Shown here: positions 1-53,218 of the stretch, piece after piece
How the letters are laid out: the number at the start of each line of letters is the position of its first letter
Position numbering within the stretch: the stretch's first letter is position 1
DNA from: Candidatus Latescibacterota bacterium
GTDB taxonomy: Bacteria > Latescibacterota > UBA2968 > UBA8231
Direction: 5' to 3'
Assembly (NCBI GenBank): GCA_965204725.1
Contig: OZ242005.1
Location: 2,432,001 to 2,496,000, forward strand
DNA length: 64,000 bases
Made by a program: the position numbers and the translations under genes
Notes under the pieces: model-generated
Told to the model about the DNA's origin: nothing
Database searches by the model: none
The model's input: the letters and a program-made list of their open reading frames with translations, nothing else

Positions 1-948
1 TTCGACTTCCGCGACGAAATCCTCCAAGAGTTGCAAGAGGAAAGGCTCGGGGAAGCGCGGGCGGCGCGGGCCGAGCAGTTGGCCCACCAATACGACTGGA
101 CCCTCCACGAGCCGGGATGGCGTCTCCTGCTCAAAAAGGGGCCGCTGTCGATCTCCTTAGCGGAAGAACAGACGCCTTTGTTCGAGTTTGCCGGTGGCCA
201 AGTCCCCCTAGGCGAGCTACTCGACCAACTCAAAAGCCGCAATATCAACGCCCCAGCCGACAGCGCCGCCTTAGTCCAGCTTGCCGAGCGCGTACTGCTC
301 CAGCCTTACATCTTTGCGGCCGCGGCCCGCCACGAGGAACTAATTGACCGCGAGGCCCTCGCAACGGTGCGGCAGAGCCTGCGTGAAGAGGTCGTCATAA
401 GCCAACTGCGCCAGCAAAAAGTAGTCGCATCCATCGCCATCGCCCCAGAGGCCGTGCGCCGCTACTACGACGAGCAAACCGAGCGCTTCTATGGCCGGGA
501 CCAGATCGACGTGGCCGAAGTGCTCGTCGAGACCGAGGAAGAGGCCCTCGCCGTGCGGCGGCAAATCGAAGCCGGGGCCGCCATCGCCGCCATCGCCCAA
601 CAGCGCAGCAAACGCCGCGGCGCCCAAGCGCGGGGCGGAGTCTTTCCCTTGGAGAAAACCTCGGACTTAGTGCCCCATATCCTAGCCGCGCAGCCGGGCG
701 AGTTGGTCGGGCCAGTCCCAGTCCACGACGGCTTCTCGGTATTTACCATAGTCCGCCGCCAACCGGGGGAGCGCATGCCTTTCGCTCAAGTCCGCCGTCA
801 GATTGGCGACCAGTTGCGCCGGGCCGAGGAGCGGGAGCGGTTCCAAGCCTACATCGAAACCCTGCGCCGCCAATACGCCGATCGGATCCAAGTGGACCAA
901 GCGCAATTAGCGGCCGCCCTCCCCGACGATTTCCTCGCCGCTTTCTAG
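1..948 (+). CDS. Parvulin/PpiC-type peptidyl-prolyl isomerase-like chaperone (SurA/PrsA-like), 5'-truncated by the window edge
   Basis: Frame is open from base 1. Rotamase-like segment IDVAEVLVETEEEA...AIAQQRS...RGG...QPGELVGPVPVHDGFSVF. C-terminus LAAALPDDFL matches paralog 48632-50371 (LEAALPDTFL). Confidence 0.8.
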   Translation, partial: FDFRDEILQELQEERLGEARAARAEQLAHQYDWTLHEPGWRLLLKKGPLSISLAEEQTPLFEFAGGQVPLGELLDQLKSRNINAPADSAALVQLAERVLLQPYIFAAAARHEELIDREALATVRQSLREEVVISQLRQQKVVASIAIAPEAVRRYYDEQTERFYGRDQIDVAEVLVETEEEALAVRRQIEAGAAIAAIAQQRSKRRGAQARGGVFPLEKTSDLVPHILAAQPGELVGPVPVHDGFSVFTIVRRQPGERMPFAQVRRQIGDQLRRAEERERFQAYIETLRRQYADRIQVDQAQLAAALPDDFLAAF

Positions 949-957
949 AGAGACGCC

Positions 958-3900
958 ATGAACCGCAAGCACTACAGCCGTTGGAGCCGAGTTGGGGCCT
1001 TGGCCTTGGGGTGGTTGGCCCTTCAGCCCGTCAGCGCCCAAGCCCCCTTAGGCCACCGCCTACAGGGCGACCGCATCCTCGTCGATCAGGCTTCCTACTG
1101 GCGGCACTGGAGCGGGCCTTCGCACGTGGTCGATGTGCATTTAGACGGGACGGTTAGGCCCCATTTCTTTCGCCACGTGTACGACATCATTGCCGAAGAC
1201 CGCACGGTATTTGCCAAACCCGTGGCCCGACCGGGCATCCGCAAGGCGGACCGGGCGATTATGAACCTCGGGCGCACCCCGACGTTGGAAGCGGACGGCA
1301 GCTTGGCCCTCGGCAAATCCGAGCAATTGATCAAGTTCCTCAACCGCGACTTCAAACGCTTCCCCGGCAACGACAGCCAAATCCCCCTGAACGGCCGGCT
1401 CCTAACCATCATGGATACCACGCTCAGCCGCGACGGCAAGACCGTGACCCTGAGCTTGCGCGACGAGCGCACGGGCGCCGCATCGACCCGCGAGTTTGGC
1501 ACCAAGGACAAAATCGCATTTCCGGTGTACGACTACGTCCAGCGCGTCGGCGTCAGCCGGGTCGGTTCCAACGAGGCCCTAGCCCCCCACATTGTCGATG
1601 GCGACCGCACCACCTTTTGGGAACCGGACTTAACGGCCCCCCCAGACCAATGGTGGATCGAAATCGACTTGGGCCGCGCAGTCGTGGTCGAGAAAGTGGT
1701 GCTGCACTTTGTCGATGCGACCTTGGGCGATCCCTTCCGCCAATTCCGCGTCATGCTAGCCCCCCAGCAAAAGCTCATTCAAGCGCAAAGCCGCGTCCTC
1801 CAATTCAAGGTGGTCGGCCAGACCCGAGCGCCCAATACGGACCAGCGGACGGTGGCGTTTTCTTCTGCGGACACGCCCGGCTTTTCCGAAGACGACGACG
1901 GCCGCACCGAGTGGACCGGCCGCATGGCCCAGACCGTGCGCATTCTCATCGGCGACAGCAAGCTGGGGCGGGCACACCCCATCGACGAGGCGGCGTGGGA
2001 TGCGTTGCCGGCCGCCGAGCGCGGCGATGTGCTCTACTATATCCGCGACGACGTCGGCTTTGAGGAGCCAGTGGCGCAGGCCATTTACGAGAGCCTTCCC
2101 CAAGACCAGCAAGGCCGCAAAGAGTACTATATCCGCGAGCGGCCCCGGCTGGCCGAGGTCGAGGTCTGGGGTTGGGGCGACAACCTATCGCCCAAGCTCA
2201 TTGACGGCGGCGGCAGCGTCCGCTTTACTGGGCCGGAAGTCCCGGCCGGCGGCTTTGACGGCGACTGGAACACCACCTTTCGCATGCCGGCTTGGTTTAG
2301 TTCCAACCCCACCGCTGGCATTCTCACCGTCGATATTGGCGCCCGCGTCTGGCTCGATGCCATGCGCTTGGCCGTTCCCTTTATTCCCGGCTATATCGCC
2401 GAGGTGGCCGACGGCAGCCGCGATCCCAACGGCCAGCTCCGGTGGCGTCAGATCAGCCTACCCGACCGCATGGAAGGGGGATTCACGCGCGCCGCCGACC
2501 TGTTTGACCCCCCCCTAGATATTCGCTTCCTCAACCTGCGCCTGCCGGGTATCGCCCGGACTTCGGGCTTTTTCTACGACCTGACCGAAGTCCTGCTCTA
2601 TACCCAAGGGTTTGTCAGCCAAGCCTCGTTGGTGTCCGATATCATCCGCCTGCCGGGGCCGCGCAACTTCGGGGCCATCCGCTGGGATCCGCCCCCCGAC
2701 GCCCAACCGCCCGGCACGACCGCGGAAGTGCGGACGCGCACCGGCGACCTGCTGGTGCAGCAAATTCGCCATTTCGACGTCAACGGCAACGAGAAAACCA
2801 AAGCAGAGTGGGACAAGCTGATCAGCAGTTGGAAGGGGCCGATTGACACCACCTTTGCCCTCGGCAGCGGCTGGAGTCCTTGGAGCCAGCAGTACCTGCG
2901 GCCGGGCGACCGAGTCCGGTCCCCAGGACTACACAATTACATGCAGTTGCAGGTGCGCTTTACCAGCCAAGATCGCCTCCAAGCGGCCTCCATTCGGTCG
3001 ATTGAAGTCAAGCTCGCTCCGCCCGTAGCCCGCGCCCTCACCGCCGAAGTATGGCCCACGCAGGCCGCGATTGGCCGGTTGGACACCTTTGACCTGTACC
3101 TGCGCCCGACATTCATAGACGCACCAGCGGCCGACCGCACCCCCGGCTTTGACGAAATCCTCCTCCAAGCCCCGCCCGGGCTCGCGCTGCACCTGTTGAG
3201 TCTGAGCATCGGCACCGACGAAGAGCTAGGCCGAGGAGCCCCCTTGCAGACGTTCACCCTAGCGGCCGATGGCGACCTGATTGACGCGGCCGGCAGCATC
3301 GCCCAAGTGCGGCGCAACCACGCCGACTCGATCTGGGTCCAACTACCCCAACTCCACGAGACCCTACCGGCGGAGTTGGCGGTTCAGACCTACCATCGCA
3401 TTACCCCCCAAGGGGCCGAAGTCATCGTGGGCGCGGGCGGCGACCGGATCACCGAAGCGGCCTACGGGCTGCTCACCGAGGCCGAGCGCGGGGCCATCCT
3501 CTTTTTGCGGCAAACGGCCGATGGCCTGCAAGCGGTCTCGGGCCGGGCTGAGTACGAGGCCCTGCCCTCGGCCGAGCAAGGGCCGATTCGCTACTTTCGC
3601 AAACTGCGCGGCGGCGGGGCCCAATCGTCCTTTGACGCCTTGGGCGACTCCCTGACGCGCTCAGCGTACTACGCGCTGCCCCCAGCCGAGCGCGGGGCTG
3701 TCTTGGGGCAAGGCCGCTTGCTCCACTTGCGCTTTGCCGCGACCGTCTTTCGCAACGGAACCACCTTTACGCCGTTTGTGCGTCGCACAGCGGCGGGCGG
3801 CAACGGGAACTTGTGGCAGCAAGCCACTCCGGGCGATGCCACGTTGCTAACGGACAGCCGCCAACTGACCCTGAGCATTCCCGTGGGCGGGCAAGTCCTC

Positions 3901-4218
3901 GGCGACCTGACCTTGGCCCCCAATCCATTTACGCCCAACGGCGACGGGGTCAACGACGAACTCACGGTCGCGTTTTCCATCTTCCAAGTGACCCAAGCCC
4001 GCCAAGCGCGTCTGCGGCTCTACGCCCTAAACGGGCGGCTGATCTGGGAAACTAGCACCCAAGTGGCCGGTGGCCCCCAACAGATTCGCTGGTCCGGTCG
4101 CGACGCCGCCGGCCGCACCGTACCGCCCGGACTCTATATCTGCCGGATTGACTTCGGCGCGGATTCGGACCGGGCCGCGGCCACGGCCTTGGCCCGCACC
4201 GTGGCCGTAGTCTATTAA
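958..4218 (+). CDS. Large secreted protein: signal peptide, discoidin/F5-8-like domains, C-terminal CHU_C/FlgD-Ig-like domain ending VVY
   Basis: 1086-aa ORF. Signal-like N-terminus (..QPVSA/QA); IVDGDRTTFWEP..WWIEIDLG; NPFTPNGDGVND; WSGRDAAGRTVPPGLY; ends TVAVVY. Collinear with 45926-48610. Confidence 0.8.
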   Translation: MNRKHYSRWSRVGALALGWLALQPVSAQAPLGHRLQGDRILVDQASYWRHWSGPSHVVDVHLDGTVRPHFFRHVYDIIAEDRTVFAKPVARPGIRKADRAIMNLGRTPTLEADGSLALGKSEQLIKFLNRDFKRFPGNDSQIPLNGRLLTIMDTTLSRDGKTVTLSLRDERTGAASTREFGTKDKIAFPVYDYVQRVGVSRVGSNEALAPHIVDGDRTTFWEPDLTAPPDQWWIEIDLGRAVVVEKVVLHFVDATLGDPFRQFRVMLAPQQKLIQAQSRVLQFKVVGQTRAPNTDQRTVAFSSADTPGFSEDDDGRTEWTGRMAQTVRILIGDSKLGRAHPIDEAAWDALPAAERGDVLYYIRDDVGFEEPVAQAIYESLPQDQQGRKEYYIRERPRLAEVEVWGWGDNLSPKLIDGGGSVRFTGPEVPAGGFDGDWNTTFRMPAWFSSNPTAGILTVDIGARVWLDAMRLAVPFIPGYIAEVADGSRDPNGQLRWRQISLPDRMEGGFTRAADLFDPPLDIRFLNLRLPGIARTSGFFYDLTEVLLYTQGFVSQASLVSDIIRLPGPRNFGAIRWDPPPDAQPPGTTAEVRTRTGDLLVQQIRHFDVNGNEKTKAEWDKLISSWKGPIDTTFALGSGWSPWSQQYLRPGDRVRSPGLHNYMQLQVRFTSQDRLQAASIRSIEVKLAPPVARALTAEVWPTQAAIGRLDTFDLYLRPTFIDAPAADRTPGFDEILLQAPPGLALHLLSLSIGTDEELGRGAPLQTFTLAADGDLIDAAGSIAQVRRNHADSIWVQLPQLHETLPAELAVQTYHRITPQGAEVIVGAGGDRITEAAYGLLTEAERGAILFLRQTADGLQAVSGRAEYEALPSAEQGPIRYFRKLRGGGAQSSFDALGDSLTRSAYYALPPAERGAVLGQGRLLHLRFAATVFRNGTTFTPFVRRTAAGGNGNLWQQATPGDATLLTDSRQLTLSIPVGGQVLGDLTLAPNPFTPNGDGVNDELTVAFSIFQVTQARQARLRLYALNGRLIWETSTQVAGGPQQIRWSGRDAAGRTVPPGLYICRIDFGADSDRAAATALARTVAVVY

Positions 4219-4242
4219 CCTACACGAGCCAAAGGGAAAATT

Positions 4243-6903
4243 ATGGAAGCGATCAGGCTAAAAACCGCGTCGGTGTCGGTGGTTTTGAGCTGCTTGCTCA
4301 GCCCGGCTTACAGCCAACCCGACTATGGGACGCGGCTGGGCGTCCCCCGCGGGAGCGGCGAGACCAGCTACGCCCCTTATGGCCCGGGCGTCCTCTTCGA
4401 CGCGCTGGACCCGGCCATTAAAAAGTGGTACGTGCCGCAGGAGCTCTACAACGAGTACCGCTGGCGTCAGTGGGAGTACAGCAACTACGCCCGCCACCAG
4501 TACCAGCGCTACGTCGATATCCAGCTAGAGGGCGACTACTACTACGACCTATTTGGCAACGCCATCACCCGCGGCTGGCTCATCTTTAGCAACTCCCAGA
4601 CCCAGCCGCGGCAATTTGGCAGCTCGCTGGTCAAGGCGACTCGCTTCAACAACTGGTTTTCGGGCGTGGCGATTGCCTCGGACAGCAAGGGGCAGTACCA
4701 CTACGCCCTGACCGTGTCGAATCGCCTGCGCACCACGCTCACCCCGATGAGCTTTTCCAAACCCGCTTGGGACGGGGTGCAATTCGACTTGGCGACCGAC
4801 AAGTACCAAGGCACCGTCATCTACTCGCGCCTTAGTTCGCCCGGCGGGGCCTCAACCGACAACACCGAAGTCCTCACCACCAACCTCACCACGCTCATGG
4901 GGGGACGGGCCACCGCTCAGATCGGCGACTTCACCCAACTCGGGGTCCACTTCGTCAACACCCACCAATCCAACACCCTGCGCGACGGCTTTAAGGGCAA
5001 CCCCATTGCCGGGGCCTTGACCGTGGACCAGAACCAGACCGTTTCCTTTATCGAGCTGGTCCTGCGCGACGACTCGCCCGAAGACGGCAGCGGGGGCGCG
5101 GCCTTCTTCCCGGTGGGTTCGGACATCCTCATTACGTACAACGACGGCGCGGTGGACCGCGGCCGGGAAATCCGCTTTGAACCCGCCATCCAAGGGGGGT
5201 TCGTGCAAGAAGGCTTTATCTCGGCCGATGGGTCTGAAGAGATCCGCCTGCTCTACGACTTCGACACGCCGGCCTTCGTCAACCGGGCCTCGGGTCCCAA
5301 AGAAGAAATCGCCCAAGTCGAGTTCGAGCTGACCATTGGCAACGACTATCAGGTGTGGATGACGTCCAACAACCAGACCAATCGCAGCGGCGAACCGGTG
5401 CTGTTGCTCGTGGCGCAGGCCGAGGGCAACGTGCAGGACAACACCAACCTGCGCATCCTCAAATTCGAGTACGGCTTGCCGACGGCGACCCAAATTGTCG
5501 GGGCCACCCTAGAGCTGCGGGATGTGGCCGGCTTCAACTTCTACGGCGAGTACGATCTGAGTGTGGCGTACCGCAAATACCCCAGCGTGACGCGGACCAG
5601 CCACACCACTTCGGCCGGCGTGGCCGGGGAGCAGGTCGAGCCCGCTTGGATGATCAACCTGTCCAAGGTCGCCCATCCGTGGTTCTTTTTTGGCGAAGCG
5701 TACAGCATGGACCCGCTCTACAACACCCGCACCTTTGTCACCGGCTCGGCCGGCAACATCGACTACGAAAACGAGCGGTTCCACGTGGTCGAGCTGGTCG
5801 AGGACAACGACGATCAAGACCGGGCACCCGACCTCGTGCGCGCCGATTCCCAAGCCGGCGACCGCCGAGTCTTTCCCGGCTGGGACGAAAATTACGACTT
5901 CATCTCGGACTTCAACCAAAACGACAACCTAACCATCTCCAACGGCATTCCCGACTACGACGAAGCCTTCCTCCGCCACCGCGTCGATCGCCCCGACTTC
6001 CTCTACGGGATTGACATGAACAACAATCTGTGGGTTGACCGCTTTGAAAACGACGAATCCCCAGACTATCCCTATCAGAAAGACCACCGAGGGTTCAACG
6101 TATATCTGGGCTACCGGCTGACCCCGGACCTCCGCCTTACCGTCGGGCACTTGCGCGAGGAACTCATCTCGGCCGACAAGCGCAATCACACGTCCTACGC
6201 CCTGTTGAGCCTAGACCGGGACGATCCCCAACAGGGGCGCGTCCGCTTTATGCAGATGGTCAAGCTGGCCCAAGACAACATGCCGGACGACCTGCTGCAG
6301 TGGTTCCCGGAAAACACGCAACGCGACGGCCAGTTGCAAAAAGTGGTAGATCCTCTTTTGGCCCAAGACACTTGGATCAATACCACTTGGCTGGGACACT
6401 CCTACAACCGCGGCGGCTTGGAGACGTACAACTATCTCAACTTGGAGCTTTTTCACCAGCGCGACGAAGCGGCCCGGCGCACGACGGACTCCTTTTTTGG
6501 CGTCATCAACAAATTCAGCTATCGCTACGATCTAGGGGCGGTCCAACTCGAGCCGCGCTGGAAAAGCGAATTCCGGCGTCAGACCGTGGGGCTGTTCACC
6601 GCCGACGAGGAGACCGTGCTGACCGAGATCTTGGGGTTCCTCTTGGGGTTTCCCATCCTCAACAACACCCGCATTCAAACCGGGATCGAGTACTCGTTCG
6701 CCAACGACATGAAGCGCGACAACAACGATTTCACCGGGCTGGCCGGCGCCTTGCAGCTAGCTAATGTGAGTTCCTACTTGGGCTACGAGGTATCCGCCCA
6801 AGTGGGGCTCAAAGCCGATTGGCGCGATTTCAAAAGCATTGAACGCGAATCCGAAATCCTGACCCAAGGCTTTATCACCCTGTATGCTGGCTTGGGCAAA
6901 TAA
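4243..6903 (+). CDS. Conserved ~890-aa exported protein, putative outer-membrane beta-barrel with Asp-rich Ca-binding-like motifs
   Basis: Signal peptide (..SPAYS/QP). Long near-identical blocks with 53403-56096 (WYVPQELY, WEYSNYAR, RGWLI, VEDNDDQDR, GIDMNNN). Alternating hydrophobic beta-strand pattern toward the C-terminus. Confidence 0.7.
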   Translation: MEAIRLKTASVSVVLSCLLSPAYSQPDYGTRLGVPRGSGETSYAPYGPGVLFDALDPAIKKWYVPQELYNEYRWRQWEYSNYARHQYQRYVDIQLEGDYYYDLFGNAITRGWLIFSNSQTQPRQFGSSLVKATRFNNWFSGVAIASDSKGQYHYALTVSNRLRTTLTPMSFSKPAWDGVQFDLATDKYQGTVIYSRLSSPGGASTDNTEVLTTNLTTLMGGRATAQIGDFTQLGVHFVNTHQSNTLRDGFKGNPIAGALTVDQNQTVSFIELVLRDDSPEDGSGGAAFFPVGSDILITYNDGAVDRGREIRFEPAIQGGFVQEGFISADGSEEIRLLYDFDTPAFVNRASGPKEEIAQVEFELTIGNDYQVWMTSNNQTNRSGEPVLLLVAQAEGNVQDNTNLRILKFEYGLPTATQIVGATLELRDVAGFNFYGEYDLSVAYRKYPSVTRTSHTTSAGVAGEQVEPAWMINLSKVAHPWFFFGEAYSMDPLYNTRTFVTGSAGNIDYENERFHVVELVEDNDDQDRAPDLVRADSQAGDRRVFPGWDENYDFISDFNQNDNLTISNGIPDYDEAFLRHRVDRPDFLYGIDMNNNLWVDRFENDESPDYPYQKDHRGFNVYLGYRLTPDLRLTVGHLREELISADKRNHTSYALLSLDRDDPQQGRVRFMQMVKLAQDNMPDDLLQWFPENTQRDGQLQKVVDPLLAQDTWINTTWLGHSYNRGGLETYNYLNLELFHQRDEAARRTTDSFFGVINKFSYRYDLGAVQLEPRWKSEFRRQTVGLFTADEETVLTEILGFLLGFPILNNTRIQTGIEYSFANDMKRDNNDFTGLAGALQLANVSSYLGYEVSAQVGLKADWRDFKSIERESEILTQGFITLYAGLGK

Positions 6904-9115
6904 GGCGCGGCCCTGGCACTCGCTGGCGGCCTTAGCAGTCTTGGCCTTGGGCCTGCGCCTAGCCTACCTGTTCCAAGCCGCGGACAGCCCTTTTTTCGAC
7001 GCGCCCATTGTAGATGCCCGAAGCTATACCGAATACGCCCACGAGTTGACGACCGGCACTTGGGCTGGGCGTCCGATGCCGTTCTGGCAAGCACCTTTTT
7101 ACCCGTACTTCCTAGCCGTTCTCTTCTCTCTTTTTGGCGAAAACTACTACCTGCCGCGGCTGCTCCAAGCCCTAGCCGGGACGACCACTTGCCTGATCGT
7201 CTTTAAGCTAGGTCGCACGGTCTTTTCGCCGACTGTAGGCTGGGTGGCCGGCTTAGGCGCGGCTTTGTACGGCCCCTTCCTCTACTTTGAGGGCGAACTT
7301 TTGCCCACGAGTTGGGCCGTGTTTTTCGACGCGGCACTGCTGGTGGTCTTGTTGCGGGGTCAGCGCCGGGGCGGCGTCTTGCCCGCGCTTAGTGCCGGTC
7401 TCGTCCTAGGGCTGGGGACCTTGGCCGTGCCGAATGTGTTGCTCTTTGCGCCGGTCGCGGCTTGGTGGGTGTACCGCATGGCAACGGGTCGCCGCGCCCT
7501 CCACGTGGCGGTCTTTGCCGCCGGTCTGCTACTGCTGGTCGGCCCGGTGACCCTGCGCAATCGCATCGTCGGCAACGAGTGGGTGCTCATCTCCTTCAAC
7601 GCGGGGGTCAACTTCTACATCGGCAACAACCCGGACTACGACCGCACCGTGGCCGCGCGGCCCGGAGCCGGGTGGAGCGAGGTGGTTGACTTGCCGCGAC
7701 GCGAGGCCGGCATCACCGAGCCGGGCGCGGGTTCAAGCTACCTTTTGGGCAAGGCTTGGGAGTATATACGCACCGATCCGAGCGGCTATGTGGCCCTGCT
7801 TTTGCACAAGGGCTACCTATTCTGGCAAGGAGCCGAGATCCCCCGCAATACCGATCCGTACGCCGCTGCTGAGTACTCGCCGCTGTTGCGCCTTTTGCTG
7901 TGGAAGTACGGCCTCGCGTTTCCCTTTGGGTTGGTCTCGGCCCTCGCCCTGCTCGGGGCGGCCTACGTCCTGCTCAAACCAGAGCGTCGCACTCCAGCGG
8001 CCTATCTCGTCTTGCTCTTTGCCGGGGTCTATATGCTGTCGGTGGTGCTGTTTTTCGTCACGGGCCGCTACCGCTTGCCGGCCGTGCCCTGTCTCTTGCT
8101 GCTGGCCGCCTATGGGGCTTGCACCTTGGCTGGTTTGCGCCGTAGGCCCTTGTATCTGTCGGCTGGGACCTTCGCCGGGCTGCTGGTGCTCACCAACGCC
8201 GGGACCGCAGCGACGAGCCCGCACGTAGCCGCCTTCCACCACTACTCGCTGGCCGCGGTCTATGAGAGTAAAGGCATGAAGACCAACGCCTTGCAGCACT
8301 ATCGCCGCGCCATCGAACTCGATCCGGCCCACGGCCGCGCCCTGCTGGGCCTGGCCTATATGTACGGAACGACCCAGCGCTACGATGATGCCGCTCACAC
8401 GTGGCGGCAATTCCTCAACCACTATCCCGACCAAGACGACGTCCGCCTCCAGCTAGCGGATTTTCTTCGGCTGCGGGGCCAGCCCCAAGAGGCGGCGGTC
8501 GAGTACCAAAAGCTCCTCGTGCGGCAGCCCGATCGAGCCGACCTCTACCTCCGCCTCGGTCGGGCCGAAGCCGCGGCCGGTCAATGGGTGCAAGCCGAAG
8601 CGGCCTATCGCCGCGCCCTCGAACTAGGCTCCCCGTCGGCTCACTACCTGCTAGGCCAGCTATACGAAGGCCAAGGCCAGCCTGCCCGCGCCGAGCAAGC
8701 CTATCAGCAGCTAATCGCCCTCCAACCCGATCATCTCGCCGGGTTGTGCCATTTAGCCGATCTGCTGCTCAAGCGGGGGGATGCGGAAACAGCCAAAAAC
8801 CATTTGCTCGCAGTGCTGACGCTCGACCCCGACAACGCCCACGCCTTGCGCAGCATGGGCACCTTAGAAGCCAACCAAGGCCAGTACCGCCAAGCCCTCC
8901 AGCGTTTTGAGCGCATCTTGCAACACCATCCCCGCGATTTGCCAGCCCGCCGCTCCCTATCCCACCTCCTGCTCAAAACGGGCCAGCGCGCCCGCGCCGA
9001 TGCCGAGTACGCACACTACCAACGCCTAAAGCGGCAGCACCGCATGCAGCAACAGACGCTAGAAAAAACCAAGGAACTAGCCGATCAACTGCGGCAGGTG
9101 TTCAAAGCGCACTAG
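6884..9115 (+). CDS. GT-C fold membrane glycosyltransferase (GT39/PMT/ArnT-like) with C-terminal TPR repeats
   Basis: Many TM segments; PIVDARSY, PFYPYFLA, NFYIGNNP and RYRLP motifs; TPR pattern (YRRAIELDP, AYRRALEL). Overlaps the upstream gene by 20 bp. Confidence 0.8.
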   Translation: MLAWANKARPWHSLAALAVLALGLRLAYLFQAADSPFFDAPIVDARSYTEYAHELTTGTWAGRPMPFWQAPFYPYFLAVLFSLFGENYYLPRLLQALAGTTTCLIVFKLGRTVFSPTVGWVAGLGAALYGPFLYFEGELLPTSWAVFFDAALLVVLLRGQRRGGVLPALSAGLVLGLGTLAVPNVLLFAPVAAWWVYRMATGRRALHVAVFAAGLLLLVGPVTLRNRIVGNEWVLISFNAGVNFYIGNNPDYDRTVAARPGAGWSEVVDLPRREAGITEPGAGSSYLLGKAWEYIRTDPSGYVALLLHKGYLFWQGAEIPRNTDPYAAAEYSPLLRLLLWKYGLAFPFGLVSALALLGAAYVLLKPERRTPAAYLVLLFAGVYMLSVVLFFVTGRYRLPAVPCLLLLAAYGACTLAGLRRRPLYLSAGTFAGLLVLTNAGTAATSPHVAAFHHYSLAAVYESKGMKTNALQHYRRAIELDPAHGRALLGLAYMYGTTQRYDDAAHTWRQFLNHYPDQDDVRLQLADFLRLRGQPQEAAVEYQKLLVRQPDRADLYLRLGRAEAAAGQWVQAEAAYRRALELGSPSAHYLLGQLYEGQGQPARAEQAYQQLIALQPDHLAGLCHLADLLLKRGDAETAKNHLLAVLTLDPDNAHALRSMGTLEANQGQYRQALQRFERILQHHPRDLPARRSLSHLLLKTGQRARADAEYAHYQRLKRQHRMQQQTLEKTKELADQLRQVFKAH

Positions 9116-9130
9116 ACGTGCCGTTATATG

Positions 9131-10628: not shown

Positions 10629-10632
10629 AGGG

Positions 10633-33497: not shown

Positions 33498-33507
33498 GAG
33501 CCGCCTC

Positions 33508-45925: not shown

Positions 45926-48610
45926 TCAATACACCACCCCAACTAGGCGGGCAGCCGAGTTGGCATCCCTCGCGTCGTCGTCTATTTCAACACGGGCGAG
46001 GTAAAGGCCCGGGGATACTAACGTTCCCCCTTCGTCCCGTCCGTCCCAGACGAGGCGATACAGCCCGTTAGCCATATCGCGCTTCTCAGAAAGGCGCCTC
46101 ACTTTCCGGCCCGCCAAGTCGTAGAAGTCCACCGCTACTTGCCGGGCTACATTGACTTTGAGCACGGCAAACGAAAAGACGACCGCGTCGTTAATGCCGT
46201 CGCCATTTGGGGTAAAGGTGGCGGGGTTTACCTCGATCATCCCGATCTGCCCGCGGCGGTCGGTCGTCAATACTGTCAACCCCTCACCCGCGGCCAATTC
46301 GTCTCCGACGGGGTCTGCCGAATCGACCCGCTGCCAGTTGTCCGCTTGCGTCGAACGCCCGACCTCGGCGGCAAAAGTGGCACCGCTCAGGAAGACACGC
46401 GACGAAAAAGAGATCCGCACAATGTCCGCACTGCCTCGCCGCAGTATCCTAGGCAACTCGAATTGCAGCGTGTCGCTTGCCACCTTGGTCAACTCTAGTT
46501 CCTCCCCCGCCTCATTCTCAAAACGACCTTTTGCCACTTCGGCAAATGTTTCCTCGTTTCCGGCGGCAAATCCGCGTTCGTCTCCTAGACTCACTTGGCG
46601 CAGTTTGATATTCGCTCGCGCCGGAGCGATGAGACGGATGCGGTCGAATCCCGGATCTCGAACAGCGAAGGAGGGGCGGATGAATAGATCAAAAGCGGTG
46701 AGTTCTCCTATGGGGACATTCCGCTTGGGCTCTATTTCCCCGGCGATGCGCTCTGCCAGCGGTGCTGTGAAGTGGACTTGGATGGACTGTAGGCTGGGGG
46801 CCGCGGCCGCCTCTTTACTGAGCAGTCTCGTCTGGATCATCATATATTGCCGAGGACTGGGGGAACGCATGACTTCGCCCGGTTCGATGTAGGCTTGACT
46901 CCAGTTGCTCCAGCCCGGTCCCGGCAGGAACTCAGTAAGAATCTCTCCCCGGTAGAACGACGGCTGAGCCTCGTATTCTTCTTTGTTAGCTACCTCCGTG
47001 CCGTCTTTTTTGAAATAGCGGTTTACTTCGCGCAGATCGTTTCCCGTCCGGGTGCGGATTTCCACCGCTGTGCCCAAGGGGGTACTAGCTTCCCATTCGA
47101 TGGTAGTCAGCGTCTTAGAACTCGCCAGATCAATGAGACCGGAAGTCATCTCAATCATGGGCAGGTAGCCGTTGGCAAAGACTTGGATTTCGGTCACCGT
47201 GCTCAGTATCCGGTGCCCCTCATGGGCCCTAGTGCGGCGAGCAATGTCTAGGTTGCGGAATTCTAGAAAGCGCATCGGGCGCGGCGCAAAGCGATCCTCA
47301 AACAGCCGCGTATTCTGGTTCAGCCGCCGCGTCTCACGACTCAATTCCTCCCAGATCAAACTGCCATCGGGTGCCAGCGAGCCGTCCGAACCGCGCAACA
47401 GATAACCAATCAGGTTTCTTCCGCCGACGCGGGTAATGATGCGCACGGCATGGACTAGGAAGTGGGTGCCCAGATCTACGTTCAACAGACCCCATTCAGC
47501 GGTCTCCCCAGTGGGAAAGTAAACCATGCCCTGCCACTCGGTACGCACGTTGCCGTCAACGGCAAGTTCGGGCGAAGAATTGGGATTGACGTCGCGTAAG
47601 CTACCGCCGCGCTCTACGATTCCCAAGGCAATGTTCTCACCCACACTCCAGACCTCCACCTCGGCGAGTTGCGGCCGTTCGCGGCGGTAATAGCGCACCC
47701 CGCCCTGCTGGTCAACCGGCAACTGGTCGTAGTCATCAACCGCTACTAGACGCTCTTCGCCAGCGATTTTCCAGACGTATTCCACAGCGCCTTGGTCCTC
47801 TGCTGCCAGTGCCTGATAATCCTCGGCCGAGATCTGTTGCGCCCGCTCGCCCCTGGTGGCCGTGGCCGCGATGCGCAGGTACTGCATAAGGCGGCCGGTC
47901 CACTCCTCTGTATGAGTGCCCAGCGGTGCGAGGTCAAACTCAAAGACCCGTTGGGTGCGATTGGGCTGGGTGGTACTGCCGACCAAGGTGTAGTCCAAAG
48001 CACCGCTGCGGTCGGCCGTGCCGAAGGGGTTTTGCCCCCCGGCCGAATGCACTCTGAATTGCAGGAACGGATCCCCTGCTTCGGCAAAGCGCAAAACAAC
48101 CTTGGTGGCCGACACCAGACGGCCGAGATCAATCTCTAACACCCAGTCTTGCAGGGGATCGGCCGGGGCCGGCTCCCAAGCTGTAGCCGGATTTGCGTCA
48201 ATCGCCCGCTCCGCTAGCTGCGGATTTGAACCAGCCCTTTTGATGCCGCCGCGTGCCAGCAGGGCGTTGGTTTCGTCCTTGAACGAATTGGCGTACTGAT
48301 CCCGCAAGCTGCCATCAATGGGATAGCTAAAGTCGGCCGCATCCACTAGGGCGTTGTGCGGTACTTGTACCAATCTGGACTGCACCGAGCCAGACGGCGT
48401 TATCGTCACCATATCCCGCGGAAAATCCCAAGCCTGCCAGTGCGCCTCGGTTCGCACCTCCACCTGACCCTCGCCCAGACTGTACCCGCTCGACTGGGCC
48501 CATACCCCGTTTAGAGCCGTAGAGAAGAAAACAGCTCCACAACAAAGAACCGTGGGCAAAAGACCGGATCGCCTCGTGGTCGTCGCCGAAATCATCGAGC
48601 GGTGTCCCAT
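45926..48610 (-). CDS. Large secreted discoidin-domain protein with CHU_C/FlgD-like C-terminus ending VVY (paralog of 958-4218)
   Basis: Signal peptide (..GVWA/QS); WVLEIDLGR; GDPFLQFRV; RERPQLAEVEVW; TFTPNGDGIND; WDGRDEGG..VSPGLY; ends GVVY. Confidence 0.8.
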   Translation of the reverse strand: MGHRSMISATTTRRSGLLPTVLCCGAVFFSTALNGVWAQSSGYSLGEGQVEVRTEAHWQAWDFPRDMVTITPSGSVQSRLVQVPHNALVDAADFSYPIDGSLRDQYANSFKDETNALLARGGIKRAGSNPQLAERAIDANPATAWEPAPADPLQDWVLEIDLGRLVSATKVVLRFAEAGDPFLQFRVHSAGGQNPFGTADRSGALDYTLVGSTTQPNRTQRVFEFDLAPLGTHTEEWTGRLMQYLRIAATATRGERAQQISAEDYQALAAEDQGAVEYVWKIAGEERLVAVDDYDQLPVDQQGGVRYYRRERPQLAEVEVWSVGENIALGIVERGGSLRDVNPNSSPELAVDGNVRTEWQGMVYFPTGETAEWGLLNVDLGTHFLVHAVRIITRVGGRNLIGYLLRGSDGSLAPDGSLIWEELSRETRRLNQNTRLFEDRFAPRPMRFLEFRNLDIARRTRAHEGHRILSTVTEIQVFANGYLPMIEMTSGLIDLASSKTLTTIEWEASTPLGTAVEIRTRTGNDLREVNRYFKKDGTEVANKEEYEAQPSFYRGEILTEFLPGPGWSNWSQAYIEPGEVMRSPSPRQYMMIQTRLLSKEAAAAPSLQSIQVHFTAPLAERIAGEIEPKRNVPIGELTAFDLFIRPSFAVRDPGFDRIRLIAPARANIKLRQVSLGDERGFAAGNEETFAEVAKGRFENEAGEELELTKVASDTLQFELPRILRRGSADIVRISFSSRVFLSGATFAAEVGRSTQADNWQRVDSADPVGDELAAGEGLTVLTTDRRGQIGMIEVNPATFTPNGDGINDAVVFSFAVLKVNVARQVAVDFYDLAGRKVRRLSEKRDMANGLYRLVWDGRDEGGTLVSPGLYLARVEIDDDARDANSAARLVGVVY

Positions 48611-48631: not shown

Positions 48632-50371
48632 CTACCCATCGCTCTTGGGCGGGGCTTTCCAAGCATGGCGCTGCAAGAAGGTATCGGGCAGGGCCGCCTC
48701 CAACGCCCTAGCAGATACAGCGATCCGCTCTTTGTATTTGTCCAGCAGGTCATCAACCAAGTCTTCAAAAAGTTGCTCTCGCTTCTGGCCGCGTACTAAG
48801 GCCCGCGCCTTTTTCTCGACTTGAAAAAAGGAGGATAACTCTCCGCCCTCGCGGTTGAGAACTTTGAAAATGCTGTATCCATCTTTAAGGTGTACCGGGC
48901 CGGTTATTTTGTCGAGGCTGGCCGCCTGTACTGCTTTGAAGAGCTGCGGCTGGGTCAAGCGCTCGTACTCGCCCAGATGCATCAAGCCATCTTTCTTTTT
49001 CATATCTCGGCGAATGGTGTGCTCTTGGGCGAGCGTTCCGAGGGTCGCACCCTGTTCGATAGCGCGCAGCAAACCGGCGGCTTCCACCTCGGTCTCGACC
49101 AGCACTTCAACGACGATGTATTGGGCCGGCTCCCGGAACAACTCCTTATTGTTCTCGTAAAAGTCCCTCGCTTCCTCCCGGCTCGCCTCGGATTGGTCGA
49201 TGATCTCTTCCGCACGCAGTTGTTTGATCATGAATTCTGTGCGTATTTCCTCCAACCGCTGTTGTCCATCCGCCATCTCCTCCAACCCAGCCCGCTGCGC
49301 CGCCGCTGCCAGTAAAGCCGGTATCAGAACCAGTTCCCTCGCGGTATCAACCACCTCGGCGCTGTCCCGCATGCCCCAGCCGGACAAGGCCCGCATATCC
49401 GTCCACAGGGCATTGAGGTACTCTCTCAGCGAGACCTGTCCCCCCTTATAGGTAAAGAGGGGCTGGGCCGCTTCCTCGGCGGCCAGATGGGTGAGTCGCA
49501 CCCGGGTGTGGAGTGCCGCTTTATCCAACAGGAGCTCCACGCCCGCTGGGACTAGCTGCACGTCCAGCTTACGGACGAGGGCCGCGATTTCCACTTCCTC
49601 CTGCTCTAGGCGCTTGCGTTCGTAGAGTATATCGCGAATCTGCTGTCGTTTCTCCGCTAGCGGGACGGGCTGGTCCTGGAGGAAGCGCACGATCTGGTAG
49701 CGCGTGCCCATGGGCAGAATGGAAGACGGCTGTCCACTCGGCAGGTTGCGGAACACCTCGTCTGGAATCTGCAACCTGCGGGCCTGCTCCAGATCGATAA
49801 ACCCCAGCACTCCTCCTTGGGCAGCCGACCGTTCGTCTATGGTGTACTCGGCGGCCAGCCGGGCAAAATCCCCGCCCGCTTTGAGTTGCTCATAGACTTG
49901 CTTTGCGGTGCTGTCCTTTTCGACCAAAATGCCCGCCATCTGGCGCTTGCGGTCCAAGCCGCTGCGAGCGAAATAGGCGCGTACCTCCTCCGCGGAAACC
50001 TGCACGTTGGGTGCCAATACGAGCCGGCGATAGGTGTTGACCAAGTACTGACGCCAGTAGGGCATCACCTTGGCCTGTACCACCTCGGCGGTATCCAATC
50101 CCCGCTCTTTGGCCTCCAGTACGAGCAGGTGCTTGGCCAGCAGACTGCGCAGGTAGCGCTCCCTCACTCGGTTTCCCTGCCCAGAGAGGCGCAAGGACTG
50201 GGGCATCTCGAAGACGAAATCGCGCATCTCGGCCGCCGAGATGGAAGTAGAATCAACGCGCGCCACCACCCCGGGTTCGAGGGCAACCTCCGCATCCGGC
50301 GAACACGCCGCGAGGCTCCAGATAAGGGCCAACTCGCATCCTTGCCGAGCCCGGGGTTTTCTGTTTCTCAT
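48632..50371 (-). CDS. Lipoprotein chaperone with two parvulin/PpiC-like domains (SurA/PrsA-like)
   Basis: Lipobox LAAC; VVARVD..IS; DFARLAAEYTID.RSAAQGGVLGFI; second domain EVLVETEVEA...ITGPVHLKDGYSIF. Confidence 0.85.
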   Translation of the reverse strand: MRNRKPRARQGCELALIWSLAACSPDAEVALEPGVVARVDSTSISAAEMRDFVFEMPQSLRLSGQGNRVRERYLRSLLAKHLLVLEAKERGLDTAEVVQAKVMPYWRQYLVNTYRRLVLAPNVQVSAEEVRAYFARSGLDRKRQMAGILVEKDSTAKQVYEQLKAGGDFARLAAEYTIDERSAAQGGVLGFIDLEQARRLQIPDEVFRNLPSGQPSSILPMGTRYQIVRFLQDQPVPLAEKRQQIRDILYERKRLEQEEVEIAALVRKLDVQLVPAGVELLLDKAALHTRVRLTHLAAEEAAQPLFTYKGGQVSLREYLNALWTDMRALSGWGMRDSAEVVDTARELVLIPALLAAAAQRAGLEEMADGQQRLEEIRTEFMIKQLRAEEIIDQSEASREEARDFYENNKELFREPAQYIVVEVLVETEVEAAGLLRAIEQGATLGTLAQEHTIRRDMKKKDGLMHLGEYERLTQPQLFKAVQAASLDKITGPVHLKDGYSIFKVLNREGGELSSFFQVEKKARALVRGQKREQLFEDLVDDLLDKYKERIAVSARALEAALPDTFLQRHAWKAPPKSDG

Positions 50372-50379: not shown

Positions 50380-52230
50380 TCAGTACACCACAGCGATAGG
50401 CCCCAGTCGCTCCGCCCGACCGCTGCCTGCTTCTACCGCGACGCGGTAAATGTATAGTCCTGGAGCTACCAATTCGCCTTGGTCATCTCGCCCGTCCCAA
50501 GCAGTTTGATAAAGCGCACTTCCCCCCTCTCCACGGACCAAGGCGCGCACTCGCCTTCCAGCCAGCGTGTAGATTTCCGTCTCAAGGGGCACGCCATCGG
50601 TCAGACTCAGTAAAGTATAGGAGAACTGCACTTGGTCGTTGACGCCGTCTCCATTGGGTGAAAATGGGTTGGGAACCGCCTGCACGGCACTGAGCAGACA
50701 GCCCTTGAGCGGTGTGCGGACGTCCAAGGCGTCGCTCAACAACTCGCTCATAGCATCTCCGGGCATAACGCTCTGGGGGACTGAATCGCTGTCCGCATCC
50801 GACACCGCGCCGCTGAAGGTGGTTCCATAATTGAATACTCGGGCGTCGAAATCCACTTCGAGGAGCGTCTGGTCTCGGTCGATGCGGGCAAATTGGACCG
50901 CGAACTGGTGGGGATCCGCCGGATCGAAATTCGGGGTAAAATCGACTGCTTCGCGGTCAATGCGCACCTCGTGGACGGCCTCCAGACGAGCGGGCGTCCG
51001 CACCGCTAGAACATTGAAACCCGATTGCTCCGCCTCGAGCCGAGTCCGCACCGCATAAGTGAACCGAACCGGGTCGGAGGACTCGACAAAAGGAGGGAAA
51101 ATCTCACCAATCGCCGCGGTGGCGATAGGAGGTTGAGAAAATTCAAAGAACAGCGAGTCGATCTGGCCTCCCGCCAAGCTGGCGGAAAAAAAAGCGATGC
51201 GTACTTGCACGTACTGCCGGGGGCTGGGAGAGAGCATCGGGATGCCGGCGAGTCCGTCCGCATACTCATAGGTGTGCCACACGCTCCAATTTTCCAGATC
51301 TTGGGTAATGCGCCCCTGCACATTCTGGGGCATGGCCCTATAGGCTTGGCGGCTCATGGGCCGACCGTTGGCCCCGAATGGGACTTCCTCTCCCCCCACT
51401 CCGGTCTTGCGCCAGTAGATCTCGGGCTGGTCGTCGCGGCCGCTGCGGCTCTGGATGACTACTTTCGCTCCCATATCGAGCTGACCGCTCCACCAGATGC
51501 GTCCCAAACTGGATGCTCGTCCCAGATCGATCGGGTCGGACAGAAACGAGGCTTGGGGAACAAACCCCTGACCGTACACCTCGAATTCGGCCACTTCCCA
51601 CGTCTCCCCCACTTCTAGGGGATGGAGATAGACGTGGCGTACTATCTGGGGTGGTATATCCAGTTCGACCTCTGGGCTTAGGTTGTCTTTCTCATCGCGC
51701 ACCAAGGTCCAGATGAGATTCCCCTTTTCGTTTTTGCTCTCTTCCCTGCCGTCGTTGACGTAAAGCCTGAACTGGCGAATCTTGTGCCCTACATGATCGG
51801 CGCGGGTTGCAAAGCGGACCCTTTCAATGGGGAATGGCGCCCCCAAATCGAAGAACATCGGCGTAGTATAGAAGAATCCGGGGCCGCGAAAGAAATTGAT
51901 GCGCGGCGGATGCACAAAAGCCGTAGTCGAATCGCCATCTACTACCAGTACGCGGTCGTCGAGCCAGTTCGCTGGCAGAGTGTAAATGCTCACCAAGCTG
52001 GTAATATCGCCATTCCGCTCGCCCATTGAGGCGATTAGGTTCTCGCCGCTTTCGGCGCTGAGCGGGCGGATGGCGTCCGGCACTTTTTCCACATCGATAA
52101 AGCTCAGGGCACCGCTTTCACTCCAAGGGTTTCCGGCACGGCCCCCCAGTTGGTAAAATTGGCGCGCCTCGGCCCGATAGCCCGGTCCCGTCCCCAACAC
52201 TGTCAGGACTATAATCAGGACCTGTCTCAC
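50380..52230 (-). CDS. Secreted protein (~616 aa), single discoidin-like domain, CHU_C/FlgD-like C-terminus ending VVY
   Basis: Start re-assigned to GTG 52230 after AGGAGG; FDLGAPF; AEFEVYGQGFVP; SDPIDLG; NPFSPNGDGVND; WDGRDDQG..VAPGLY; ends AVVY. Confidence 0.8.
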   Translation of the reverse strand: MRQVLIIVLTVLGTGPGYRAEARQFYQLGGRAGNPWSESGALSFIDVEKVPDAIRPLSAESGENLIASMGERNGDITSLVSIYTLPANWLDDRVLVVDGDSTTAFVHPPRINFFRGPGFFYTTPMFFDLGAPFPIERVRFATRADHVGHKIRQFRLYVNDGREESKNEKGNLIWTLVRDEKDNLSPEVELDIPPQIVRHVYLHPLEVGETWEVAEFEVYGQGFVPQASFLSDPIDLGRASSLGRIWWSGQLDMGAKVVIQSRSGRDDQPEIYWRKTGVGGEEVPFGANGRPMSRQAYRAMPQNVQGRITQDLENWSVWHTYEYADGLAGIPMLSPSPRQYVQVRIAFFSASLAGGQIDSLFFEFSQPPIATAAIGEIFPPFVESSDPVRFTYAVRTRLEAEQSGFNVLAVRTPARLEAVHEVRIDREAVDFTPNFDPADPHQFAVQFARIDRDQTLLEVDFDARVFNYGTTFSGAVSDADSDSVPQSVMPGDAMSELLSDALDVRTPLKGCLLSAVQAVPNPFSPNGDGVNDQVQFSYTLLSLTDGVPLETEIYTLAGRRVRALVRGEGGSALYQTAWDGRDDQGELVAPGLYIYRVAVEAGSGRAERLGPIAVVY

Positions 52231-52260
52231 CCAGTGCCTCCTTTGCTCGATTGTCACCAA

Positions 52261-52298
52261 GAAAACGGCGGGGTTCACAGTCGCCTGCAAACCCCGCC
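52261..52298 (-). terminator. Intrinsic terminator/attenuator-like hairpin after the TWGQIK protein gene
   Basis: GGCGGGGTT...AACCCCGCC stem (52267-52298), followed on the minus strand by GTTTTCTT. Confidence 0.65.
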
Positions 52299-52342
52299 TG
52301 AAAATGCCTTCAACGTCTGTGGTGCAGGCAGTCGAGTCGGCC

Positions 52343-53218
52343 TTATTGGAAGGTAGCCTTGATCTGGCCCCAAGTGTTGGCCTCGACCGAGGTAGGTCCG
52401 GCGTCGGGCAATCCCTCTTCAATGGGGGCCAGCAGATAGTCGCCGAACTGGTCGGCATCCCTAGAAGCACCTATGCCGCCAAAACCGGACCAGTAGGCAT
52501 CGTCGTAGGAGCCGGGATCGGCATCCTTGTCGCCCCAGTTGACCTCTAGGCCGACGACCGTGCCTTCCACCCAATTGTGCCTGATACTTTGCTCGGGGCC
52601 GTCAGGGTGGATGTCGTCAAAGGGCACGATAGAGTATTCGCCGAACATTTCGGCTGGCTCTTGGGTATCGACATTGCCGCGGAGAAACCGGCCGGCCCAC
52701 TCCACGTACGGGGACTGGCCCGCCCACGCTTTGGAGCCATCGATAATCCGGGTATAATAACCAGAAGAACTGAAAATCGGGCCGGCCAGATCGTAGCGCT
52801 GGGCTTGGGCGCTGGCCCAGCGGGTCTCGAAGTCATCCCCTTGGTCGAAACCGCGAAAGATGCCGCCCGTGTGATCCCAATCCGTGGTCGTCGACCACTT
52901 CTCGGTGTTGTTGATAAAATCGTCGGCGATCCAAGCTCCAAAATAAGCCTTGCCATCGTTGATGTTGTAGCCCCAGACGAGCCACGCATTGAAATCGCTC
53001 AAATCCATGGGGGCTCCGAACTGGTTGAACATGGTTTCGGCTTTGATCTTGTACACATCGCTGACAATGTCCCAGTCCGACATATCGCCATCCAACACCG
53101 GAGTCAGATGATCCGGGAACTGGAACATGAACTTCATCTCGCCTTGGTGGCCAAAAGCCGCGCCGACCACGAAGGCCGAGACCAGTAAAGCAACTGATAC
53201 CTCGTAGATCCTCTTCAT
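52343..53218 (-). CDS. Secreted acidic protein (~291 aa), CBM9/DOMON-like, with C-terminal VEANTWGQIK tail
   Basis: Start re-assigned to MKRIYE (AGAGG RBS); signal peptide; PVLDGDMSDW; VVGLEVNWGDKD; ends TSVEANTWGQIKATFQ. Confidence 0.7.
   Translation of the reverse strand: MKRIYEVSVALLVSAFVVGAAFGHQGEMKFMFQFPDHLTPVLDGDMSDWDIVSDVYKIKAETMFNQFGAPMDLSDFNAWLVWGYNINDGKAYFGAWIADDFINNTEKWSTTTDWDHTGGIFRGFDQGDDFETRWASAQAQRYDLAGPIFSSSGYYTRIIDGSKAWAGQSPYVEWAGRFLRGNVDTQEPAEMFGEYSIVPFDDIHPDGPEQSIRHNWVEGTVVGLEVNWGDKDADPGSYDDAYWSGFGGIGASRDADQFGDYLLAPIEEGLPDAGPTSVEANTWGQIKATFQ

Follow-up and report, generated by a model that had tools for sequence, protein, structure and literature searches.

At the left end of a 64,000-nucleotide stretch of the genome of a Candidatus Latescibacterota bacterium (assembly GCA_965204725.1, contig OZ242005.1, positions 2,432,001 to 2,496,000 of the forward strand; this whole stretch is referred to below as the window), we analyzed genes for a parvulin (P), a large discoidin protein (L), a predicted outer-membrane beta-barrel (B) and a protein (G) in which a glycosyltransferase of the GT-C fold is joined to a tetratricopeptide repeat (TPR) arm. 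What is new here, as judged from the comparison of many such loci at the sequence level, is that the GT-C/TPR gene is a conserved partner in one branch of a family of barrel cassettes. An open reading frame (ORF) scan of window positions 1..9115 gave four + strand ORFs, with spacers of 9 and 24 bp and then an overlap of 20 bp, exactly as the initial annotation of this stretch had stated:

1..948, + strand: P, parvulin (peptidyl-prolyl isomerase), last 315 codons in the window, 5' end open; Rotamase_2, 53 bits
958..4218, + strand: L, 1086-aa secreted discoidin protein with a T9SS-type C-terminal domain (T9SS, type IX secretion system); Pfam F5_F8_type_C and CHU_C (33.1 bits, cut-off 27)
4243..6903, + strand: B, 886-aa predicted outer-membrane beta-barrel of an unnamed family; structure model and structural matches, blank in Pfam
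6884..9115, + strand: G, 743-aa predicted inner-membrane GT-C-fold glycosyltransferase (PMT_2) with a TPR arm; Pfam PMT_2 and many TPR families; 20-bp overlap with B

A seven-gene cassette at the start of the window

The window start truncates this locus (locus 1). In the flanking genome sequence, the gene for P begins 696 nt before window base 1 and encodes a protein of 547 aa, whose N-terminus has a lipobox (FLGGC) and thus marks it as a lipoprotein parvulin. Three further cassette genes lie upstream of P. The initial annotation had pointed to this region as a place for shorter passengers and a TWGxIK protein, and both were indeed present: a 310-aa secreted protein (C) with the C-terminal end SWARIKARFK, and two proteins (D) of 742 and 703 aa, whose FlgD_ig/CHU_C tails exceed the Pfam cut-offs. 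The whole unit comprises seven same-strand genes in the order C-D-D-P-L-B-G, with successive spacings of 42, -47, 1, 9, 24 and -20 nt. L has a signal-peptide-like N-terminus, as judged by sequence, and ends in VAVVY; all 15 tailed proteins inspected in this genome end in [V/I/L][A/V]Y, and in the six C-type proteins inspected the motif (S/T)W(G/A)x(I/L)K stands a few residues before the C-terminus. A scan of positions 1-9600 for promoters and terminators gave no promoter-like and five terminator-like sites, below shuffled sequence, and a tRNA scan of the window gave none.

Components of a T9SS were detected elsewhere in the genome. SprA_N matched a 2198-aa frame at 84.5 bits, PorU was found at 623 bits (cut-off 420), and a PorV-like gene adjoins PorU (150 bits, under the cut-off of 250). 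With CHU_C, the two D proteins upstream of the window scored 27.4 and 32.7 bits and, like L, passed the cut-off, and three proteins of a second, related locus in the window (locus 2, listed below) scored 23.8-26.1 bits, below it. PF11751 (PorP/SprF) gave no match in B or in its 897-aa paralogue of locus 2; it gave none genome-wide either, but control genomes were also blank, so the genome-wide result is weak.

The sequence of B had no match in Pfam, NCBIfam or the Protein Data Bank (PDB). The gene is real, because 851 relatives of similar length (54-95% identity) were found at E<=1e-3 among the 7998 candidates scored. Its product has a signal-peptide-like N-terminus, and an AlphaFold (AF2) model built from 34 relatives (mean predicted local distance difference test score, pLDDT, 65.5) contains about 24-26 long antiparallel strands and an inserted beta-rich domain at ~269-375. 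An N-terminal region of ~110 aa (residues 20-135) is highly conserved and poorly modelled. Residues 522-610 are acidic, rich in D and N, nearly invariant over the 34 relatives and modelled with pLDDT <50; this segment contains the motifs DNDDQD, DENxDFISDFNQND and IDMNNNxWxDRFENDExPDYPY and looks like a cluster of calcium-binding loops. In Foldseek and VIA-align searches the model matched membrane beta-barrels only, the best being SlpA of Deinococcus (7zgx_A; Z 13.6, root-mean-square deviation (rmsd) 8.7, 412 aligned residues), followed by FhaC, porins, the PapC usher and the BamA/TamA and LptD classes. Since all structural matches were membrane beta-barrels and none stood out, B is, on this model, a large barrel of the outer membrane whose family has no name. 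In agreement with this, the ESM Atlas returned unnamed clusters only, and the nearest named cluster, DUF6029 (score 0.88), should be taken as a lead only. A SusC/SusD or TonB-dependent uptake locus was also considered and rejected: the TonB_dep_Rec, Plug and SusD families are absent from the cassette proteins, and structural matches to TonB barrels were weak (Z 8.4-10.4).

In G, Pfam recognized PMT_2 (PF13231) at residues 69-217 with 29.3 bits (cut-off 26.1) as well as many TPR families. Neither PF02366 nor MIR matched at E<=0.01 and a TPR arm follows the membrane core instead, so G does not have the make-up of a canonical protein O-mannosyltransferase (PMT, GT39). An AF2 model from 23 relatives (mean pLDDT 86.7) has a multi-pass membrane core at ~10-438 and a C-terminal arm of 20 helices at 446-742, corresponding to about ten TPR hairpins. 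When the core (model residues ~3-460) was compared with solved GT-C enzymes by VIA-align, the matches were AglB (3waj_A; Z 23.6, rmsd 4.3, 321 aligned), ArnT (5f15_A; Z 22.3, rmsd 4.1 Å, 329 aligned), ALG12 (Z 21.1), STT3 (Z 20.2), Pmt2 (6p2r_B; Z 20.1), Pmt4 (9e61_A; Z 19.4, rmsd 3.7 Å, 339 aligned), PglB (Z 16.6) and AftA (Z 16.0). The modelled core is that of a GT-C fold, and the Z-scores do not separate lipid-acting from protein-acting relatives. This fold emerged only in the exhaustive VIA search; TPR proteins dominated Foldseek results with the whole model, and a phmmer search of PDB sequences gave no match for the GT-C core and only TPR proteins for a whole-G profile.

Several residues of the core are strongly conserved. 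D44, the first-loop Asp in the motif VDAxTY, does not vary across an alignment of 23 sequences, and 43 of 45 family members have it, as do 20 of 21 barrel-linked copies; by analogy with other GT-C enzymes it may have a catalytic role. R225-N226, Y245/G247, K309, E318 and Y396-R397-x-P399 are also invariant in that alignment, and E318 and R397 are kept in all 21 barrel-linked copies. The positions of the basic loops (159-165, 198-206, 365-371 and 417-422) are consistent with an ArnT-like topology with 11 transmembrane helices, and by this positive-inside pattern D44, the long loop 231-347 and the TPR arm would all be periplasmic. The predicted fold, the conserved Asp and the probable periplasmic side together fit a transferase that uses lipid-linked sugars. 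G evolves faster than B.

Linkage and co-inheritance of the barrel and GT-C genes

With ten window proteins as tblastn queries, the genome gave 40 barrel matches corresponding to 37 ORFs, 36 of which are at least 850 aa long, together with 29 parvulin matches, 26 matches to the WGxIK protein and 11 GT-C/TPR paralogues. At least one barrel is present in each of 28 clusters. The initial annotation had described a second, diverged copy of an expanded paralogous module, and this genome-wide count agrees with it. Ten of the 11 GT-C paralogues lie inside cassette clusters (the exception is at 1605 kb), and five start within about 30 nt of a barrel stop (locus 1 and those at 421684, 2626896, 5035622 and 5331765). 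These counts are not independent, because paralogues copied as a block bring their neighbors along.

Other genomes were therefore informative. Three genomes of the same genus (G004, G005 and G009) were sampled at 20 of their 21 GT-C loci, of which six have a barrel followed by the GT-C gene and a seventh keeps a barrel remnant. This remnant, in G005, the nearest of the single-contig relatives inspected (L004 10557-11042), adjoins a gene of the FGE-sulfatase family, and the cassette was lost there by rearrangement. A further 20 barrel loci were inspected in 13 genomes beyond these (from family f1, to which the window belongs, but in other genera, and from families f6 and f13); they were picked as top barrel matches and hence are biased to the same clade; the GT-C gene directly follows the barrel in ten, a TPR-only gene directly follows it in three and lies at 1.1 kb in one, and six have neither. 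The f6 and f13 pairs are distant from locus 1 (45-48% identity for the barrel and 33-38% for GT-C). In all, the barrel-then-GT-C pair was found in three families of the phylum, with full-length GT-C ORFs at 33-90% identity, and it can be read from coordinates in further sampled genomes among the matches listed. A broader set, the best 78 barrel loci in species-representative named Latescibacterota metagenome-assembled genomes, included 70 with at least 1.5 kb of downstream sequence: 37 have GT-C, 13 a TPR-only gene and 20 neither. Thus, the idea of the initial annotation that the GT-C gene belongs with this module was upheld in related genomes (37 of the 70 related barrel loci). Where the barrel is 95-96% identical, GT-C is kept at all four loci. 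Over-called GT-C starts aside, the two genes are spaced by -58 to +104 nt.

An example of the TPR-only variant is found in the same genome (C1:2851134-2852180, - strand), where a gene for a 348-aa protein occupies the position of G in a sister cassette with the order P-L-B-t-D-D-B-C. The protein aligns with the last transmembrane helix and the TPR arm of G, and its N-terminus is lipobox-like (LNAC). The existence of a free-standing arm speaks for its binding to some part of the cassette.

A tree of 44 barrels placed all 11 GT-C-linked barrels in one clade of 13 (SH-aLRT 100), and the two unlinked barrels of this clade share one sister cassette. In the GT-C tree, the linked copies require two label changes, as opposed to 9.6 in shuffles. 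For 21 adjacent pairs, the barrel and GT-C trees have 11 of 18 splits in common, ten of them with support of at least 95 in both; the single strong conflict is shallow and concerns three near-identical f6 copies. Pairwise distances of the two proteins over these 21 pairs were correlated (r=0.906), and none of 5000 permutations was as high, whereas the five pairs of this genome alone gave r=0.69 with 7 of 120 permutations as high. Species phylogeny contributes to both the split and the distance figures. Nevertheless, because the common splits include old paralogous lineages, the trees show, at the level of the sequences compared, that the two genes have been copied and passed on as a pair, with G as the co-inherited partner of a single barrel clade. 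Chance juxtaposition, which incongruent trees would have indicated according to the initial annotation, is not what was observed.

The two genes also have separate distributions. The C-terminal part of B matches 67 of 121 sampled genomes of the phylum; the barrel occurs in 40 of 40 f1 genomes, 35 of which also have GT-C, and in several other families, and was not found in the 29 f2 and 13 f4 genomes searched. GT-C copies number 4-11 per genome in eight sampled genomes of genus g1 and 4-13 in another g1 set. Some relatives of the locus proteins are filed as Gemmatimonadetes bins, and DNA of this bacterium was found in sequencing runs labelled sponge metagenome. Since there are barrels without GT-C and GT-C genes without barrels, G is an optional accessory of one cassette subtype, which goes back to an older, stand-alone enzyme and has increased in number along with one cassette clade. 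Four f2 GT-C loci had no cassette genes within 9 kb. One such lone f2 gene (L024, genome G022, 4144-12679) has DUF6785/DUF6784 genes on both sides and is also flanked by a TPR gene, a setting which hints that the ancestral stand-alone GT-C/TPR enzyme belongs to another, unstudied envelope system.

Possible roles of the GT-C/TPR protein

Taken broadly, G probably either modifies the exported proteins of the cassette or serves to dock them. It is quite possible, if still tentative, that the cassette as a whole combines T9SS-type cargo, a cognate barrel and a parvulin foldase with G as an enzyme that glycosylates a cassette protein. In such a system, the two D proteins and L would cross the outer membrane through the T9SS of this genome, and B would hold the tailed proteins at the surface in the way that PorP/SprF holds type-B cargo. 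The lipoprotein parvulin P might chaperone the barrel or the cargo in the periplasm. The TPR arm of G, if it works as in the animal TMTC proteins, would catch a cassette protein there, and G would transfer to it a sugar from a polyprenyl-phosphate donor; glycosylation of cassette proteins by G is thus suggested by analogy. A more specific version, which we regard as rather doubtful, is that each barrel of the clade has its own dedicated periplasmic protein glycosyltransferase and that the cassettes represent a phylum-specific surface-display pathway unrelated to PorP/SprF. Its elements would be a large barrel, a dedicated foldase that is a lipoprotein, a protein with the WGxIK tail and a module for glycosylation or docking, and G would add sugar in the periplasm to folded lectin or Ig-like cargo, or to the barrel itself, ahead of surface display. 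If this were true, a bacterial TMTC-type enzyme could for the first time be assigned a role.

A number of observations weigh against a role of G in glycosylating cassette proteins, or against parts of this scheme. The tails score only 16-18 bits with TIGR04131 (16.3 for L; cut-off 35); we infer T9SS dependence rather than read it from the tails, because they pass CHU_C only in some members and fail TIGR04131. The GT-C gene is present in only nine of the 28 barrel clusters of this genome. Family f2 has GT-C in 27 of 29 genomes (one or two copies each) and barrels in none, and the reverse is seen in f9 (barrels in 5 of 6, GT-C in none of 6) and f10 (barrels in 10 of 13, GT-C in none of 13). In G005, a GT-C ortholog (86% identity) is intact beside a barrel cut to its last 161 codons (89% identity). 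The TPR-only replacements suggest that sugar transfer is dispensable, and the linked copy at 421684, which is very divergent, does not have D44. No alignment column splits the 21 GT-C-linked from the 43 unlinked barrels (at least 90% of linked and at most 15% of unlinked). Finally, no gene for a polyprenyl-phosphate sugar synthase or a flippase was found in the cassettes examined; the nearest GT2 gene, at window positions 21771-22793, has generic matches only.

Two other functions of G deserve consideration, both of which we judge unlikely. It might be an ArnT-like transferase acting on lipid A, the lipopolysaccharide (LPS) core or another outer-membrane glycolipid, perhaps one that anchors T9SS cargo (compare A-LPS of Porphyromonas). 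PMT_2 includes ArnT-like enzymes, ArnT itself is one of the best matches by structure (Z 22.3), genes of the LPS heptosyltransferase-like and GT2 types are located 12-15 kb downstream, and the genome has PorU, which in Bacteroidota is the sortase that joins cargo to glycolipid. However, the Z-scores do not set ArnT apart from the protein-acting AglB, STT3 and Pmt enzymes; ArnT-type enzymes have no TPR arm, whereas such arms bind proteins and the TPR-only derivative is still located behind the barrel. Nor is it to be expected that a lipid modifier would diverge in step with one clade of barrels over several duplications. The other possibility is that the TPR arm is the working part, so that G would be an inner-membrane-anchored periplasmic docking or assembly factor for the barrel or the cargo, with a secondary or vestigial transferase. 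Parallels would be AlgK in its pairing with AlgE, BcsC and PgaA in their TPR parts, and BepA or BamD in their action with LptD and BAM; the arm has sub-threshold matches to the BcsC, PgaA, BepA and PilW TPR models. Behind barrels of this clade, G is replaced by TPR-only genes in 13 of the 70 loci and also in the sister cassette of this genome. That the cassettes already carry a dedicated chaperone, the parvulin, is counted in favor of a docking role. A complex prediction for the arm (440-743) with residues 20-140 of B, run with no controls, scored 0.00 against a mark of 0.32. A vestigial transferase, on the other hand, is not expected, because the core residues (D44 in 20 of 21, E318 and R397 in 21 of 21) and full-length ORFs are conserved at 33-90% identity across three families.

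That B and G form a trans-envelope route for a glycan, composed of transferase, periplasmic TPR part and porin, with the lectin-type proteins binding the exported glycan, appears very unlikely. The AlgK/AlgE, BcsC, PgaA and PelB export modules are typified by a TPR part combined with an outer-membrane barrel, the genes for B and G share 20 bp, and cassette proteins have discoidin lectin-type domains; but most barrels of the family are without G, and no GT2/GT4 synthase, cyclic di-GMP receptor or polymer-modifying gene was found in the two window loci and four sister cassettes. Moreover, PMT_2-type GT-C enzymes are not known to act as processive synthases. We disfavor most strongly, as highly improbable, the view that G is unrelated to the cassette and that its adjacency to B is a hitch-hiking accident of duplication. 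Block duplication does carry neighbors along, and the survival of G beside a destroyed barrel in G005 could be read in this way. Yet the pair is kept at the low identities seen in f6 and f13, at least three old paralogous lineages have retained it, their trees being congruent, and the spacing stays in the narrow range given above.

The preferred reading, glycosylation of a cassette protein by G, draws on the animal protein O-mannosyltransferases TMTC1-4. These have an N-terminal multi-pass GT-C part and a C-terminal TPR arm on the non-cytoplasmic side, as we infer for G. DUF1736 is a domain associated with TMTC, and G does not have it: its sole Pfam enzyme match is PMT_2. G is furthermore tied to an outer-membrane barrel cassette, and its likeness to TMTC is one of architecture, not of direct sequence comparison. 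TMTCs act on exported proteins, at folded domains of the beta-sandwich (cadherin) type, and the proteins of the cassette are also exported and rich in beta structure; a related paper is PMC11292533. Statements in parts of PMC7801869 name ArnT as the closest solved relative of TMTCs and place full-length GT-C plus TPR homologs of TMTC in many poorly characterized prokaryotes. With ArnT, AglB/PglB/STT3 and Pmt1/2/4, G shares the GT-C fold over ~3-460 and the conserved Asp in the first external loop; it differs in having no phmmer similarity to the solved chains and in lacking both the MIR domain of Pmt and the soluble periplasmic domain of PglB/AglB, in whose place there is a TPR arm. A single PMT-type membrane glycosyltransferase that glycosylates secreted proteins in a bacterium is known from Caldicellulosiruptor bescii (a GT39 enzyme, described in parts of PMC6151902). 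That organism is Gram-positive, and its gene has no outer-membrane partner and is not multiplied with its clients; the same parts of PMC6151902 report no TPR arm.

With respect to the barrel, the AlgK-AlgE, BcsC, PgaA and PelB systems resemble the cassette in that they couple a TPR scaffold of the periplasm to a barrel of the outer membrane, and the TPR arm has weak BcsC/PgaA matches; in the cassette, however, the TPR part is fused to an inner-membrane GT-C and not to a porin, and the barrels are mostly without a TPR gene. PorP/SprF proteins are about 300-400 aa long, in contrast to the ~890 aa of B, which has no PF11751 match and is accompanied by tails that fail TIGR04131. The likeness to T9SS type-B cargo with PorP/SprF (SprB-SprF; PG1035-PorP; PMC9143113, PMC12618676) lies in CHU_C-tailed cargo genes beside a barrel gene, with many repeats per genome, and in the T9SS core genes of this genome. 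Extra parts of the present cassette, compared with such loci, are the lipoprotein parvulin, the protein with the WGxIK tail and, for one clade, the GT-C/TPR protein. Our literature search, the scope of which covered papers without their supplements, found none on the cassette, on the barrel-GT-C pair or on Latescibacteria with type IX secretion. The component parts resemble known kinds, the barrel is outside PorP/SprF, and the combination is undescribed.

Prokaryotic proteins that combine GT-C and TPR are widespread and none has a known client; one subfamily is now genetically tied to defined exported proteins. The barrel, the discoidin protein and the shorter tailed proteins make up a shortlist of candidate substrates for a bacterial TMTC-like enzyme. 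The GT-C module and its TPR-only variant extend an undescribed, heavily expanded outer-membrane cassette that makes up a sizeable part of an uncultured Latescibacterota genome, and these findings bear on the use of T9SS and on surface decoration by bacteria outside Bacteroidota.

The second locus and other features of the window

Locus 2 occupies positions 45926-58091 on the - strand. Its genes, given in the order in which they are read, are as follows:

56106..58091, - strand: D, 661-aa tailed protein; FlgD_ig 37.1 bits, CHU_C 25.9 bits
53403..56096, - strand: B, 897-aa barrel paralogue, with no GT-C gene after it; 48% identity to the 886-aa B, blank in Pfam and NCBIfam
52343..53365, - strand: C, secreted protein ending in NTWGQIKATFQ (from the translation); no Pfam match
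50380..52470, - strand: D, 696-aa tailed protein; CHU_C 26.1 and FlgD_ig 24.1 bits, each slightly below cut-off
48632..50371, - strand: P, 579-aa lipoprotein parvulin with two rotamase domains (Pfam); lipobox SLAAC
45926..48610, - strand: L, 894-aa discoidin protein with a T9SS-type tail (Pfam), directly after the parvulin; 36% identity to the 1086-aa L

The likely start of C is an internal Met before the signal peptide, which would give a protein of ~292 aa. Identity between the two loci is 48% for the barrels (over 877 residues), 36% for the large proteins and 33% for the parvulins, and at these values locus 2 is a true paralogue of locus 1. The parvulin is directly followed by the large passenger in both loci and the remaining genes are reordered, which confirms from gene order what the initial annotation had noticed. 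Its description of the loci as divergently arranged has to be corrected: they are convergent and 36.8 kb apart, because locus 1 is read rightwards and locus 2 leftwards.

Immediately downstream of G, on the - strand at 9246-18463, is an island of low GC content (0.48, compared with 0.60-0.65 nearby) with defence-type genes. It encodes a 460-aa Schlafen/AlbA_2 plus HATPase_c_4 protein, a 1053-aa TmtA-like sacsin ATPase, a 1293-aa DrmD-like SNF2 helicase that also matches PDC-M23B, and a 264-aa PDC-M23A protein (E 4e-98). The island is absent at the syntenic site in G005, where AP_endonuc_2 and MFS-HEAT genes come directly after the GT-C gene. Further along, a 731-aa DUF1156/N6_N4 methylase-like protein with PADLOC matches to PglX-like and DUF1156_MTase is followed by an unmatched 343-aa ORF (25328-28538, + strand), and a 974-aa ORF at 36817-39741 (- strand) is blank in Pfam and NCBIfam.

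Some ORFs of sister cassettes that at first had no match were considered as candidates for a donor synthase or flippase and proved to be a restriction-modification pair, a GDSL lipase, a DUF2442 protein and an MFS-spermine synthase-TPR protein. The restriction-modification pair is of type II (TdeIII endonuclease and N6_N4 methylase) and lies between tailed-protein genes in the sister cassette at C1:417852-419575 (L049). Between the two loci of the window, at 30867-33569 on the - strand, there is also a gene for a 900-aa TPR protein with a C-terminal TonB_C domain, which matches PorW/SprE at 111.7 bits, under the cut-off of 250.

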